The notes below the pieces were generated by a model. It was not told the DNA's origin. It ran no database searches and worked only from the letters and a program-made list of their open reading frames with translations. DNA of 4,981 nt from a virus (Duplodnaviria; Heunggongvirae; Uroviricota; Caudoviricetes), in IMG/VR virus record IMGVR_UViG_2648501787_000009. One strand, given 5' to 3'. The stretch's first letter is position 1; each line of letters begins with the position of its first letter. The translations under genes and the position numbers were made by a program. Below, piece after piece: positions 1-4,981 of this stretch.

Positions 1-207
1 CTTATCAGGGAAGGCGTAAATTTCTTTCGTCCACGGATTAAGGCCGTACTGGTTGGCGACGATCAACAATGCGATGAACTGCGCATCGCTGGCATCGCCT
101 TTAAATGCCGTCTGGCGAAGAGTGGTGATCAGTTCCTGTGGGTCGACAGAATCCATGCCGACACGTTCAGCCAGCTTCCCTGCCAGCGTTGCGAGTGCTG
201 TACTCAT
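1..207 (-). CDS. bet: Bet (Red-beta) single-strand annealing recombinase, N-terminal 69 codons only; the gene continues past the window start
   Basis: Minus-strand ATG at 207..205 translates MSTALATLAGKLAERVGMDSVDPQELITTLRQTAFKGD..., matching the remembered lambda Bet N-terminus. It begins 5 nt after the gam stop, as in lambda. The frame is open to position 1. Confidence 0.9.
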   Translation of the reverse strand, partial: MSTALATLAGKLAERVGMDSVDPQELITTLRQTAFKGDASDAQFIALLIVANQYGLNPWTKEIYAFPDK

Positions 208-212
208 CCGTT

Positions 213-509
213 TTATACCTCTGAATCAATATCAACCTGATGGTGAGCAATGGTTTCAACCATGTACCGGATGTGTTCTGCCATGCGCTCCTGAAACTCA
301 ACATCGTCATCAAACGCACGGGTAATGGCTTTTTTGCTGGCCCCGTGGCGTTGCAAATGACCGATGCATAGCGATTCAAACAGGTGCTGGGGCAGGCCTT
401 TTTCCATGTCGTCTGCCAGTTCTGCCTCTTTCTCTTCACGGGCTATCTGCTGGTAGTGACGCGCCCAGCTCTGAGCCTCAAGACGATCCTGAATGTAATA
501 AGCGTTCAT
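213..509 (-). CDS. gam: Gam, RecBCD inhibitor (98-aa GamS form)
   Basis: The 98-aa ORF ([21 protein letters not shown]...[10 protein letters not shown]) is near-identical to remembered lambda GamS. Stop TAA at 215..213. Gene order bet-gam-cIII matches lambda. Confidence 0.9.
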
Positions 510-619
510 GGCCGAACTCCTGAAAATGGCTGTGAAAATATCGCCCGCGAAATGCCGGGCTGATTAGGAAAACAGGAAAGGGGGTTAGTGAATGCTTTTG
601 CTTGATCTCAGTTTCAGTA

Positions 620-763
620 TTAATATCCATTTTTTGGGACTCCTGGCTGATTAAGTATGTCGATAAGGCGTTTCCATCCGTCACGTAATTTACGGGTGAT
701 TCGTTCAAGTAAAGATTCGGAAGGGCAGCCAGCAACAGGCCACCCTGCAATGGCATATTGCAT
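620..763 (-). CDS. cIII: CIII, FtsH-inhibitor that stabilises CII (47 aa; lambda CIII is 54 aa)
   Basis: ATG at 763..761 translates [47 protein letters not shown], matching lambda CIII through residue 46. AAGGAG Shine-Dalgarno lies upstream. It sits 72 nt downstream of the ea10 stop, exactly as in lambda. Confidence 0.85.
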
Positions 764-835
764 GGTGTGCTCCTTATTTATACATAACGAAAAACGCCTC
801 GAGTGAAGCGTAATTGGTATGCGGTAACGCCGCGC

Positions 836-1204
836 TCAGGCGGCCTTGATAGTCATATCATCTGAATCAAATATTTCTGATGTATCGATATCGGTAATTC
901 TTATTCCTTCACTACCATCCATTGGAGGCCATCCTTCCTGACCATTTCCATCATTCCAGTCGAACTCACACACAACACCATATGCATTTAAGTCGCTTGA
1001 AATTGCTATAAGCAGAGCATGTTGCGCCAGCATGATTAATACAGCATTTAATACAGAGCCGTGTTTATTGAGTCGGTATTCAGAGTCTGACCAGAAATTA
1101 TTAATCTGGTGAAGTTTTTCCTCTGTCATTACGTCATGGTCGATTTCAATTTCTATTGATGCTTTCCAGTCGTAATCAATGATGTATTTTTTGATGTTTG
1201 ACAT
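836..1204 (-). CDS. ea10: Ea10-like early protein (lambda ea10/ssb-like, 122 aa)
   Basis: The 369-nt ORF has the same length and relative position as lambda ea10. GAGGA Shine-Dalgarno precedes the ATG at 1204..1202. The product is acidic. Identity was recalled, not searched. Confidence 0.75.
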   Translation of the reverse strand: MSNIKKYIIDYDWKASIEIEIDHDVMTEEKLHQINNFWSDSEYRLNKHGSVLNAVLIMLAQHALLIAISSDLNAYGVVCEFDWNDGNGQEGWPPMDGSEGIRITDIDTSEIFDSDDMTIKAA

Positions 1205-1224
1205 CTGTTCATATCCTCACAGAT

Positions 1225-1250
1225 AAAAAATCGCCCTCATCTTGGAGGGC
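1225..1250 (-). terminator. Rho-independent terminator candidate on the leftward transcript, just upstream of ea10
   Basis: On the minus strand: GCCCTC-CAAGAT-GAGGGC stem-loop (1250..1233) followed by GATTTTTT (1232..1225). Confidence 0.5.
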
Positions 1251-1392
1251 AAAGAAGATTTCCAATAATCAGAACAAGTCGGCTCCTGTTTAGTTACGAG
1301 CGACATTGCTCCGTGTATTCACTCGTTGGAATGAATACACAGCGCTGTGTTTATTCTGTTGTTTGCGTGAAAATGAAATCCGCCTGAGCGGG

Positions 1393-2262
1393 TTATGACC
1401 ACTTTTTGTTTGGGTTTCGTTGGTGAGCGTGGTTTACAGGATTATTTGATATACCCCATAACTCTGACTCGCTTATCTCTACACGAGAGAAAGACCTGCT
1501 TTCTTTCAGTTCTTTTATAAACCTAGAACCTAAGATGACATCTATTGTACCAGAAAGTTCTTGTAAAAGATCTTTGTTTTTTCTGAGGAAGAAAATATCT
1601 TCTTTATATTTAATTTTTACATAGAATTTATTCTGTATTTTTAATATATCAAAGCATGGCAGATATCTATATCCCTCATATTTTCGCCACTGCTTAACAA
1701 TTATAACATCTTTTTCATTTACTGCATTAATCAGCCCAAGACCAAGTACAGGTATGAATATTCTATTGTCTGCCGAAAGCGTACAATTATCACCACCAGG
1801 CAAATATGTATAAATCATGTCGGAATTTTTATACGCATCAACGAATGCACGTAAGAAGCGTACATATTTTTGCCATCCGTTTATACCGAATTTACCATAT
1901 AAGTATTCTTTATTTGTTAGAAGAAAACTATTTGTATCAGGATCCTTATCTACAGACCTGTCGATAAGATCTCCAACTACGTTTACAAAGTCAAAGACAG
2001 AGTTTAATAAGAACAATTGTCTTTCAGTAGGGCGAATTTCAATTATGTAGCCAGGATGAAGACGATATTGCATCTGCTTACGAAGTATACCGAACGCTTG
2101 GGTCCGAGCATCTGAAAGCAACTTCTTGTCGCCATCGCCGTGAGCATTGTTTCTAATAAAACTGATATAATTTGCTAATTTTTCAGCCTCTTTTTTGTGT
2201 TTTTTTCGCTCTGATGCTGAGTCTATTGGTTTTGGTATGGACTTGTAATCAATCTTCTTCAT
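1393..2262 (-). CDS. Hypothetical 289-aa protein, no family recognised; AT-rich gene occupying the sieB/ral position between N and ea10
   Basis: Long uninterrupted minus-strand ORF. Preferred start is ATG 2262..2260 (MKKIDYK...), with GAGG 6 nt upstream. An alternative ATG at 2274..2272 overlaps the N stop as ATGA. Stop TAA at 1395..1393. Composition is visibly more AT-rich than the flanking lambda-like DNA and codon usage is rich in K, I, N, Y and F. No part resembles lambda Ral or any protein I can name. Confidence 0.7.
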   Translation of the reverse strand: MKKIDYKSIPKPIDSASERKKHKKEAEKLANYISFIRNNAHGDGDKKLLSDARTQAFGILRKQMQYRLHPGYIIEIRPTERQLFLLNSVFDFVNVVGDLIDRSVDKDPDTNSFLLTNKEYLYGKFGINGWQKYVRFLRAFVDAYKNSDMIYTYLPGGDNCTLSADNRIFIPVLGLGLINAVNEKDVIIVKQWRKYEGYRYLPCFDILKIQNKFYVKIKYKEDIFFLRKNKDLLQELSGTIDVILGSRFIKELKESRSFSRVEISESELWGISNNPVNHAHQRNPNKKWS

Positions 2263-2270
2263 TACGTACC

Positions 2271-2594
2271 TCATGCCAATGGAATGGATTCCCCTTTAAC
2301 CTTTTGTCTTCCTTGACAAGTTATACCGAACTCACCTGGCTTGCTATACCAAACTCGATGATTCTTGCGCTCAATACGTTGCAGGTTGCTTTCAATCTGT
2401 TCGTGGTATTCAGCCAGCACCGTAAGGTCTATCGGATTCAGTGCGCTTTCTACTCGTGATTTCGGTTTGCGATTCAGCGAGAGAATAGGGCGGTTAACTG
2501 GTTTAGCGCTTACCCCAACCAACAGGGGATTTGCTGCTTTCCATTGAGCCTGTTTCTCTGCGCGACATTCGCGGCGGCGTGTTTGTGCATCCAT
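2271..2594 (-). CDS. N: N transcription antitermination protein (107 aa, lambda-type)
   Basis: ATG at 2594..2592 translates MDAQTRRRECRAEKQAQWKAANPLLVGVSAKPVNRPILSLNRKPKSRVESALNPIDLTVLAEYH..., lambda N with a handful of substitutions. It lies 222 nt downstream of the inferred pL start, as in lambda. The longer track ORF 2271..2726 is the same frame extended upstream. Confidence 0.9.
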   Translation of the reverse strand: MDAQTRRRECRAEKQAQWKAANPLLVGVSAKPVNRPILSLNRKPKSRVESALNPIDLTVLAEYHEQIESNLQRIERKNHRVWYSKPGEFGITCQGRQKVKGESIPLA

Positions 2595-2751
2595 CTGGAT
2601 TCTCCTGTCAGTTAGCTTTGGTTGTGTGTGGGAGTCGTAGTCCTGAACGAAAACACCCCGCAATGGCACATTGGCAGCTAATCCGGATTCGCACTTCCGG
2701 CCAATGCTTCGTTTCGTATCACACACACCAAAGCCTTCTGCTTTGAATGCT

Positions 2752-2782
2752 GCCCTTCTTCAGGGCTTAATTTTTAAGAGCC
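2752..2782 (-). promoter_or_regulatory. nutL: nutL (boxA + boxB) N-utilisation site
   Basis: The minus strand reads GGCTCTTAAAAATTAAGCCCTGAAGAAGGGCA. boxB is GCCCTGAAGAAGGGC (plus 2752..2766) and boxA is GCTCTTA (plus about 2774..2782). The site lies between pL and N. Confidence 0.85.
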
Positions 2783-2815
2783 TCACCTTCAATGGTGGTC
2801 AGTGCGTCCTGCTGA

Positions 2816-2895
2816 TGGCTTAAAATTACAAGGAAGATTGTATGTTGTAAACAAGAAATATTGTAAAAAGGGGCGTGAAAAACAAACTCCATTGT
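2816..2895 (-). promoter_or_regulatory. pL promoter with 434-type OL operators
   Basis: Three 14-bp ACAA-N6-TTGT sites are present: ACAAGGAAGATTGT (2828..2841), ACAAGAAATATTGT (2851..2864) and ACAAACTCCATTGT (2882..2895). On the minus strand, -35 TTTACA (2851..2846) and -10 TAATTT (2828..2823) are 17 nt apart. The inferred transcript start is near 2816 (ATCAGCAGGACGCACTGACC..., the lambda N leader). Confidence 0.8.
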
Positions 2896-2945
2896 TTTTA
2901 AACGGAAAATAGTTTGTTTTTTTGTTATCGAGATTGAGGTGGGGA

Positions 2946-4298
<1,353 letters not shown>

Positions 4299-4306
4299 GA
4301 CATTCC

Positions 4307-4338
4307 CGCTCTTACACATCCCAGCCCTGAAAAAGGGC
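4307..4338 (+). promoter_or_regulatory. nutR: nutR (boxA CGCTCTTA + boxB GCCCTGAAAAAGGGC)
   Basis: boxA CGCTCTTA is at 4307..4314 and boxB GCCCTGAAAAAGGGC at 4324..4338, immediately downstream of cro as in lambda. Confidence 0.85.
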
Positions 4339-4351
4339 ATCAAAATAAACC

Positions 4352-4383
4352 ACACCTATGGTGTATGCATTTATTTGCATACA
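4352..4383 (+). terminator. tR1-region RNA hairpins in the cro-cII spacer (lambda tR1 is Rho-dependent)
   Basis: Inverted repeats ACACC/GGTGT (4352..4364) and GTATGCA-TTTATT-TGCATAC (4363..4382) lie between nutR and the cII ribosome-binding site. There is no clean U-tract. The function is assigned only from position in lambda. Confidence 0.4.
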
Positions 4384-4404
4384 TTCAATCAATTGTTATC
4401 TAAG

Positions 4405-4440
4405 GAAATACTTACATATGGTTCGTGCAAACAAACGCAA
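4405..4440 (-). promoter_or_regulatory. pRE (CII-activated promoter for repressor establishment), including the CII-binding direct repeats
   Basis: The minus strand reads TTGC-GTTTGT-TTGC (plus 4427..4440), the TTGC-N6-TTGC CII recognition repeats. An AAGTAT -10 candidate follows on the minus strand (plus about 4408..4413). The site overlaps the cII start, as in lambda. Confidence 0.7.
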
Positions 4441-4711
4441 CGAGGCTCTACGAATCGAGAGTGCGTTGCTTAACAAAATCGCAATGCTTGGAACTGAGAA
4501 GACAGCGGAAGCTGTGGGAGTTGATAAGTCGCAGATCAGCAGGTGGAAGAGGGATTGGATTCCAAAGTTCTCAATGCTGCTTGCTGTTCTTGAATGGGGT
4601 GTCGTCGACGACGACATGGCTCGATTGGCACGACAAGTTGCTTCGATTCTCACCAATAAAAAACGCCCGGCGGCAACCGAGCGTTCTGAACAAATCCAGA
4701 TGGAATTCTGA
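4418..4711 (+). CDS. cII: CII transcriptional activator (97 aa, lambda type)
   Basis: ATG at 4418 with AAGGA Shine-Dalgarno at 4402..4406. Translation MVRANKRNEALRIESALLNKIAMLGTEKTAEAVGVDKSQISRWKRDWIPKFSMLLAVLEWGVVDDDMARLARQVASILTNKKRPAATERSEQIQMEF matches lambda CII. The track ORF 4358..4711 is the same frame extended upstream. Confidence 0.95.
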   Translation: MVRANKRNEALRIESALLNKIAMLGTEKTAEAVGVDKSQISRWKRDWIPKFSMLLAVLEWGVVDDDMARLARQVASILTNKKRPAATERSEQIQMEF

Positions 4712-4733
4712 GGTTATTACTGGAACTATCAAC
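4653..4733 (-). ncRNA. oop: oop antisense RNA candidate with its terminator, overlapping the cII 3' end
   Basis: On the minus strand, a GC-rich hairpin (plus 4662..4685: AACGC-CCGGCGGCAACCGA-GCGTT) is followed by TTTTTTATT (plus 4661..4653). The position between cII and O matches lambda oop. The 5' end is placed by analogy only. Confidence 0.55.
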
Positions 4734-4743
4734 AGGAGTCATT

Positions 4744-4968
<225 letters not shown>

Positions 4969-4981
4969 AGCTATAACCCCG

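Follow-up and report, generated by a model that had tools for sequence, protein, structure and literature searches.

The stretch of DNA analysed here raises the question of what a lambdoid phage does with a gene placed where lambda keeps ral and sieB. The stretch, called the window below, comprises the 4,981 nucleotides (nt) of IMG/VR record IMGVR_UViG_2648501787_000009, and its positions 1-4884 are 99.9% identical to Escherichia phage 434 (OL657226.1); for positions 625-4884, window coordinates equal those of the phage 434 record minus 30380. Between the antiterminator gene N and ea10 it carries a minus-strand gene for a protein of 289 amino acids (aa). We tentatively read this protein as a modular elongation arrest factor of the Nun type, a 'long Nun' whose targeting part is a new folded domain and which would act in phage competition, and we place this reading first among those considered while stopping short of calling it probable. 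The coordinates of the gene, its parts and its surroundings are collected in Table 1.

A preliminary description of this DNA, made from its letters alone, had reported an AT-rich gene that occupies the ral/sieB position, abuts the N stop codon, is followed by a terminator, fills an interval similar to that of lambda (1.07 against 1.13 kb) and resembles a horizontally acquired moron in the pL operon. These points were borne out. The GC content of the open reading frame (ORF) is 34.6% (30% at third codon positions, GC3) against 45.2% for the remaining window, and the distance from the N stop codon to the ea10 start measures 1066 base pairs (bp) here, against 1132 bp for the interval of lambda that holds ral (and sieB). 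Homology to lambda spans positions 625-1364 and 2281-2820; the block replaced between them has 916 bp here and 982 bp in lambda, and the 289-aa gene takes the place of lambda ral/sieB. The first-ATG ORF (1393..2274) would encode 293 aa from an ATG that overlaps the N stop codon (ATGA), an upstream start at 2272-2274 unused by the homologues. The ATG at 2262, which lies 8 nt past the N stop with a GAGG ribosome-binding site, agrees with all homologues and with the GenBank coding sequence CPT_434_48. The doubt that the ORF might be a fusion created by a frameshift was also addressed. Two phage 434 records have the identical sequence, homologues of unchanged length reach down to 38% identity, the full-length gene is present in 83 of 5426 complete E. 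coli genomes, and the 90% cluster of the protein holds 1042 member sequences; the ORF is neither a frameshift artefact nor a chance ORF.

The preliminary description could assign the protein to no family, which holds in part. Neither the protein nor its relatives matched Pfam, PADLOC or NCBIfam, and sequence-profile searches of the PDB with the protein returned nothing meaningful. On the other hand, PHROG 12139, itself of unknown function, matches over the full length, PHROG 5632 (Nun-like termination factor) matches only the last 20 residues, and the GenBank product name of CPT_434_48 is 'Nun C-terminal peptide-containing protein'. This tail is the decisive feature absent from the preliminary description. 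Using the nun gene recovered from the HK022 genome for comparison, we found that residues V276-S289 equal V96-S109 of HK022 Nun (UniProt P18683) at all 14 positions (VNHAHQRNPNKKWS), and that this includes every residue between N97 and S109 that touches RNA polymerase, RNA or DNA. The cryo-electron microscopy structure of a Nun-bound elongation complex shows order in Nun from residue 87 to 109 only, a segment stretched out as a peptide within the active-site cleft. In it the rudder, the RNA and the template DNA are touched by N97, H98 and H100; K106, K107 and W108 occupy a pocket beside the rudder, R102 forms a pair with the C-terminal carboxylate, and N103 makes no contact (PMC5386594). Removal of the last 13 residues abolishes binding of Nun to RNA polymerase (PMC5386594).

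A search of IMG/VR with a back-translated DNA pattern of the tail gave at least 119 matches in at least 60 distinct proteins. In every one of these proteins the tail ends 0-1 residue after the tryptophan. Among the matches listed, most Nun-tailed proteins have 83-124 aa and differing arginine-rich N-termini, and the rest belong to the family of 289-301 aa. Because the tail forms the extreme C-terminus of at least 60 distinct proteins with varied N-termini, it is, as judged from these sequences, a portable effector joined to varied targeting parts. The short Nun-tailed proteins (loci L059-L137) show a large, apparently undescribed diversity; one group of 88 aa begins with MDAQARRREKRKEKQEEWK, closely resembling the lambda N motif, and looks like an N-to-Nun conversion or a set of Nun variants aimed at other nut sites.

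In the mechanism we propose, the tail would enter the active-site cleft of E. coli RNA polymerase during elongation, threading in as that of HK022 Nun does. The folded body of about 260 residues, on the predicted model, would replace the short boxB-binding arginine-rich motif of Nun as the targeting part; it presumably binds some feature of RNA or DNA, or a factor associated with the polymerase, and in this way would concentrate the tail locally at selected transcription complexes. Rival phages or other incoming DNA would thus be interfered with while 434 is in its early development, and in the lysogen too if transcripts reading through from pRM reach the gene; no obvious terminator that would stop such read-through was seen between hex and pL. 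The own lambda-type nut complexes of 434 would not be the target, unless the protein is self-limiting.

The position of the gene bears on what the tail may be aimed at. In the early operon of pL it comes second, after N; no terminator was found in a scan of the junction between the two, and the first terminator-like site lies about 140 nt past the stop codon of the gene. Among lambdoid prophages, 434-like and Pantoea-like ones included, the gene starts 1-8 nt after N, and the N proteins encoded upstream carry at least three different types of arginine-rich motif. In the HK022-like phages L004 and L054, which have an HK022-type cI and cro and a putL-like sequence, the N gene is absent and the gene directly follows cI/pL. 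There the long gene is the first of the pL operon and stands in the exact slot of nun. Ordinary short nun genes were also found after non-lambda N-like genes. Judged by gene order, the position after nutL is a general 'nun slot', which in 434 is filled by the long form. A Nun directed at lambda boxB would be suicidal in 434, because its own N is of lambda type.

It is possible, if unlikely, that the protein is an untargeted polymerase inhibitor, which would either shut off host transcription while sparing N-modified complexes or exert negative feedback on the early transcription of the phage itself. The immediate-early pL unit, the tight coupling to N across a terminator-free junction and the lack of a lysogenic promoter in the promoter scan would suit this explanation, as would the arrest of any elongation complex by Nun at high concentration in vitro (PMC5386594). 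Linkage to N genes of several specificities likewise suits a function tied to antitermination rather than one foreign target. However, HK022-like phages without N carry the gene too, lambda manages without it, and the conserved core of 150 residues, which resembles a nucleic-acid-binding fold, exceeds the needs of a plug; resistance of N-modified complexes to the tail is moreover an assumption only.

Lambdoid phages swap modules where they share short sequences, and a second alternative is that the tail was acquired by accident at a short shared junction, made up of the nun 3' end and the DNA downstream, and that the real function lies wholly in the body. The homology between 434 and HK022 DNA does start exactly at the tail (position 1438) and runs through the stop codon into non-coding DNA at 94.7% identity, up to the point, matching window positions 1326-1334, at which IS903 interrupts HK022. 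However, homologues whose downstream DNA is unrelated keep the tail. We compared tail codons in five diverged members of the long family with 38-68% protein identity and unrelated downstream DNA (as in L004 and L006). Synonymous differences from 434 were present at 6-7 of the 13 tail codons, and the 2-3 nonsynonymous codons fell only at Nun positions 101, 103, 104 and 105. V96, N97, H98, A99, H100, R102, K106, K107 and W108 (Nun numbering) never changed in the five, whereas N103, the no-contact control of the structural study (PMC5386594), varies among the long-family tails. This is the pattern of conservation that the Nun structure predicts. Because contact residues are kept in spite of 6-7 synonymous changes, these alignments indicate that the tail is under selection and not a recombination scar. 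Its unvarying place at the extreme C-terminus in at least 60 distinct proteins and the different basic tail of similar length that remote relatives carry at the same point also argue against a relic, which we consider improbable.

The body of the protein was examined through its wider family. An exhaustive profile search of 1.8 billion representatives yielded 24 relatives, and a scan of the GTDB representative genomes yielded none. The close relatives all carry the Nun tail. The distant ones have 213-326 aa and about 20% identity and share the core motifs P..Q...L..LF.GP, FLL.NK, CSIS, LGL and RY..F, which in the 434 protein appear as P78..Q82, FLLxNK, C160-T-L-S163, LGL and R199-Y200..F204. 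They also keep the pre-tail motif S.S[YF]SRV[DE] and end in G..V.GGLPSLGKRR instead of the Nun tail. Profile comparison by hhalign of the Nun-tailed with the remote group gave a probability of 99.8% and E 5.9e-30 over 200 columns, and the alignment reaches the residue where the tails begin. The homology of the two groups is firm on this comparison. A C-terminal tail therefore appears, from these alignments, to be a feature of the family, since at the residue where the tails begin the remote relatives have another basic tail, of about the same length.

An AlphaFold model built on a 21-sequence alignment (predicted local distance difference test, pLDDT, 80.8; predicted template modelling score, pTM, 0.71) consists of a basic helical hairpin (aa 16-65), a core of strands, helical bundle and beta-barrel (70-220), helices (221-259) and a disordered tail. 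A disordered segment before the tail is what an inserting peptide requires. The first 35 aa of the protein hold 10 lysine and arginine residues, and the hairpin is found in the Nun-tailed phage subfamily. The predicted body resembles the WED+REC (nucleic-acid-recognition) half of TnpB/Cas12, and Foldseek searches of the PDB and BFVD point, weakly, to the same TnpB-like fold; this is a likeness of folds, and we do not claim homology. Nothing corresponding to RuvC or a zinc finger is present in the model, in which only about 40 helical residues follow the core, and PF01385 and PF07282 matched none of 21 family members. The TnpB N-terminal family PF12323 gave no Pfam match either, and hhalign against ISDra2 TnpB alone was not significant. 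No associated structured RNA was found in an Rfam scan of the window, a scan that included no dedicated covariation search, and the BREX-embedded relatives described below leave spacers of only 22-35 nt.

The basic helix SERKKHKKEAEKLANY (aa 15-32; window 2167-2220) aligns with lambda N residues 3-18, AQTRRRERRAEKQAQW, and a relative of 301 aa has DKQTRRAARK where N has DAQTRRRERR. The shuffle p of this alignment, about 0.01-0.02 uncorrected, makes the likeness no more than suggestive. The helix was considered as an N/Nun-type arginine-rich motif and set aside as marginal at best (p 0.01-0.04 before correction).

The genomic contexts of the remote relatives are consistent with a conflict-related family and are no proof of it. 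In four related sets of contigs a relative lies between brxC and pglX, 22-35 nt from its neighbours, and PADLOC confirmed BrxA, BrxB, BrxC and PglX in one such operon. The island that holds one further relative also has NYN, RelA/SpoT and DISARM-like (PLD, MZB, helicase) genes. The BREX-like operons (L010-L013, L016 and L018; for example L012, 3128-16559) share the order BrxA-BrxB-BrxC-[family member]-PglX, and the embedded member ends in GGLPSLGKRR. Further on, the contigs that reach far enough (L010-L013) show a pair of unannotated genes, of 376 and 423 aa, together with an Hsp70-like gene and a second methyltransferase of MmeI type; PglZ was not seen within the range read of these operons.

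These contexts, together with the occupation of the ral locus, would allow the phage copy to be an anti-defence decoy that mimics the accessory protein of BREX-like operons and interferes with defence in place of ral, for which the remote homologues in confirmed BrxA/BrxB/BrxC/PglX loci speak. However, the protein and its BREX-embedded relatives are only about 20% identical and differ in their tails, no BREX model of PADLOC matched the 434 protein or any relative, and other relatives lie outside defence loci. Selection on the Nun polymerase-contact residues would also be left unexplained, and we give the decoy little credence, about as little as the relic. The preliminary description had also pointed to a weak D...EK pattern around GGDNCTLSADN...NEKD, but a PD-(D/E)xK-type nuclease or abortive-infection toxin has next to no likelihood, since the wider family does not conserve D158, E183 or K184 and keeps in this region C160, S/T161 and S163, which form the 'CSIS' strand of the core within the WED-like strands; Pfam, PADLOC and NCBIfam gave no nuclease family, and a nuclease domain is absent from the predicted fold.

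Several findings weigh against the long Nun proposal or parts of it. Equivalents of Nun H93/R94 are absent from the long family (N273 and N274 in 434; DK, GQ, VS or GS in other long members), whereas the short Nun-tailed proteins mostly have a histidine or aromatic residue there, followed by a basic one. The upstream Nun motif 'DAMH[RK]V' before VNHAH is likewise not matched in the 434 protein. Because R94A strongly weakens binding of Nun to the elongation complex in vitro (PMC5386594), the bare long-family tail may bind poorly. For the targeting part, the likeness to TnpB rests on a predicted model, and hhalign against a profile of 69 TnpB N-terminal sequences gave E 0.0035 at a probability of 9% over 28 columns, aligning aa 71-98 with TnpB 6-33 in the expected register. 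The Pfam N36 arginine-rich motif did not match the protein, and the shuffle test of the candidate motif is marginal (p ~0.01-0.04, uncorrected for 24 tests).

As to its setting, the gene belongs to the lytic pL operon and has a lambda-type N as its neighbour; a polymerase plug without targeting would damage 434 itself. Upstream of the gene the promoter scan found no promoter for the lysogenic expression that classical exclusion needs. Of the functions that the preliminary description had named as candidates, one of the exclusion type is still the best guess, ahead of abortive infection and anti-defence. The BREX contexts are closely interrelated, and two relatives have no defence neighbours, one being near a plasmid TrfA gene and the other flanked by a glycosyltransferase gene and cheX. 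Disrupted copies of the gene are present in several prophages. The disruptions comprise an insertion of IS1 (L055), a frameshift (L045-L046) and 5' truncations (L007 and L049-L051); in L007, a cryptic prophage remnant beside cusS with IS1 just upstream, only residues from about 108 on are left.

Of known systems, HK022 Nun and the TnpB/Cas12f homologues exapted as transcription regulators come nearest in concept. In HK022 Nun the tail likewise stands at the extreme C-terminus after a flexible segment, and its gene occupies the same slot downstream of pL and nutL/putL, with common 3'-flanking DNA. The two differ in length (109 aa against 289 aa), homology is confined to the tail, the body of Nun is disordered whereas that of the 434 protein is predicted to be folded, and the arginine-rich boxB-binding motif of Nun was not detected in the 434 protein. 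The 434 gene coexists with a lambda-type N, and therefore lambda nut complexes cannot be its target in the manner of Nun. In comparison with TnpB/Cas12f-type nucleases (IS200/IS605 OrfB), the RuvC and zinc-finger/TNB domains are absent and sequence similarity is not significant. TldR and dCas12f-sigma proteins keep an inactivated RuvC lobe and guide RNAs and act at promoters. They are cases in which a TnpB-like scaffold has been reused, sometimes by temperate phages, for transcription control (10.1101/2023.11.30.569447, PMC13472631, 10.1101/2025.07.22.666180). The 434 protein differs from them in lacking the RuvC lobe and in its proposed effector, a peptide plugging the elongating polymerase. 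Lambda Ral and SieB share the N-ea10 position and a similar cassette length and have no sequence or family relationship to the protein; Pfam, which includes Ral and SieB models, gave no match to it. The gene between brxC and pglX in BREX operons has a homologous core and the pre-tail motif S-x-S-Y-S-R-V-D, but it shows about 20% identity, mostly lacks the basic N-terminal hairpin and ends in G-x-x-V-x-GGLPSLGKRR. The BREX-type relatives are chromosomal or plasmid-borne, whereas the 434 gene stands in a phage early operon.

Table 1. Positions of the 289-aa gene, the parts of its product and neighbouring features in the window.
Feature	Position	Strand	Basis or remark
289-aa gene, stop codon TAA at 1393-1395	1393..2262	minus	protein identical to phage 434 CPT_434_48 / UMO75312.1
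Junction with N: N stop TGA 2271-2273, GAGG ribosome-binding site 2268-2272	2263..2274	minus	
Basic Lys/Arg-rich N-terminal helical hairpin, aa 1-66	2065..2262	minus	AlphaFold2 helices 16-37 and 43-65, pLDDT 84-96; alignments
Family-wide core, aa 70-220, predicted TnpB/Cas12 WED+REC-like fold	1603..2055	minus	
Pre-tail motif ESRSFSRVEISES, aa 254-266, S-x-S-[YF]-[SA]-R-V-[DE]	1465..1503	minus	conserved across whole family
Variable linker, aa 267-275, predicted disordered	1438..1464	minus	pLDDT <50 for residues 260-281; variable in alignments
Putative arrest tail, aa 276-289, VNHAHQRNPNKKWS, identical to Nun residues 96-109	1396..1437	minus	PHROG match, HK022 comparison
DNA like HK022 nun 3' end and downstream	1326..1438		94.7% identity
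Moron cassette, block without lambda homology	1365..2280		starts 10 nt inside N 3' end, ends 28 nt past ORF stop
Intrinsic terminator GCCCTC-loop-GAGGGC with T-run, ends N-ORF transcription unit	1223..1252	minus	scan and record annotation; within lambda-homologous DNA
Lambda-type antiterminator N (R10C here)	2271..2594	minus	directly upstream of 289-aa gene, co-transcribed
pL transcript start 2816 and nutL boxB hairpin 2751-2767	2751..2816	minus	mapped GenBank features; drive operon

The surroundings of the gene showed further features. The 196 nt that follow it (1205-1400, minus strand) fold far better than shuffled sequences (z -5.7) and contain a small CCGC hairpin right after the stop codon, a 14-bp hairpin (GUGUAUUCAUUCC...) and the terminator. 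Except for the first 28 nt past the stop, with the small hairpin, this structured region is common to lambda and is for that reason not specific to the 289-aa gene. No RNA family was found near the gene by Rfam, whose sole match in the window is the cIII translational thermoregulator (Lambda_thermo, 718-776, minus strand, 88.5 bits), and the nutL boxB hairpin was also seen in a hairpin scan of the window. An 87-bp loss and an IS100 insertion in replication gene O identify the window as a defective 434-like prophage in an E. coli chromosome; the target gene in it is still intact. The 87 bp are missing at about 625-635 relative to both phage 434 and lambda, and an 11-bp overlap of two alignments flanks the gap. 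With them most of kil is gone and the C-terminus of cIII is altered (47 aa instead of 54), while the thermoregulator is intact despite this nearby change to the cIII coding end; loss of the toxic kil is typical of domesticated or defective prophages. The last 97 bases (4885-4981) are not phage DNA but the end of IS100 (IS21 family, istB side), and they occur in 2979 of 5426 E. coli genomes in up to 25 copies per genome.

Codon 10 of N (2565-2567) reads RRRECR in place of RRRERR, a change of R10C within the boxB-binding arginine-rich motif that is not present in other 434-like copies such as L020 and that may cripple antitermination by N in this prophage. The gene after cI, in the position of rex, is 434 hex (2946-3350, minus strand), annotated in GenBank as a repressor-protection protein with a remark that the published start codon is wrong; the longer reading of 158 aa in the ORF list overlaps the end of cI.

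The resemblance of the tail to Nun is already recorded in the GenBank product name. To judge from the literature searched, selection on the long-family tail, the equivalence of the nun slot, the TnpB-like body and the BREX-embedded relatives with an alternative tail are new. No publication on the 289-aa protein was found, nor one linking Nun with TnpB or with phage 434, and the announcement of the phage 434 genome does not discuss the gene. Genetics missed it because the widely used lambda imm434 hybrid has lambda sieB at this position and not the 289-aa gene.

Among phage proteins that freeze RNA polymerase and so exclude a rival, Nun is the textbook case, to which the rpoC changes R322H, D264G and D329G (beta-prime) confer resistance; it is usually treated as a one-off, with one arginine-rich motif and one tail. 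The sequences described here suggest that the tail is carried by dozens of different targeting modules, and that in phage 434, itself a classic phage, it is joined to a large folded domain with a predicted TnpB/Cas12-like recognition fold. As a long shot, the protein could be a RuvC-less descendant of TnpB with sequence-specific, possibly RNA-guided, recognition that delivers interchangeable C-terminal peptide 'plugs' to the transcription machinery: the Nun plug in temperate phages and the GGLPSLGKRR tail in BREX-embedded and plasmid copies. If true, this would be a programmable transcription-arrest device, categorically new, and would newly link transposon-derived scaffolds, phage exclusion and BREX. 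For the long Nun proposal itself, if the tail works as it does in Nun, the family would show that the specificity of polymerase arrest can be re-programmed and would offer a new handle for site-selective blockade of transcription, and the homologues in BREX operons suggest that the same scaffold is also used by bacterial defence.

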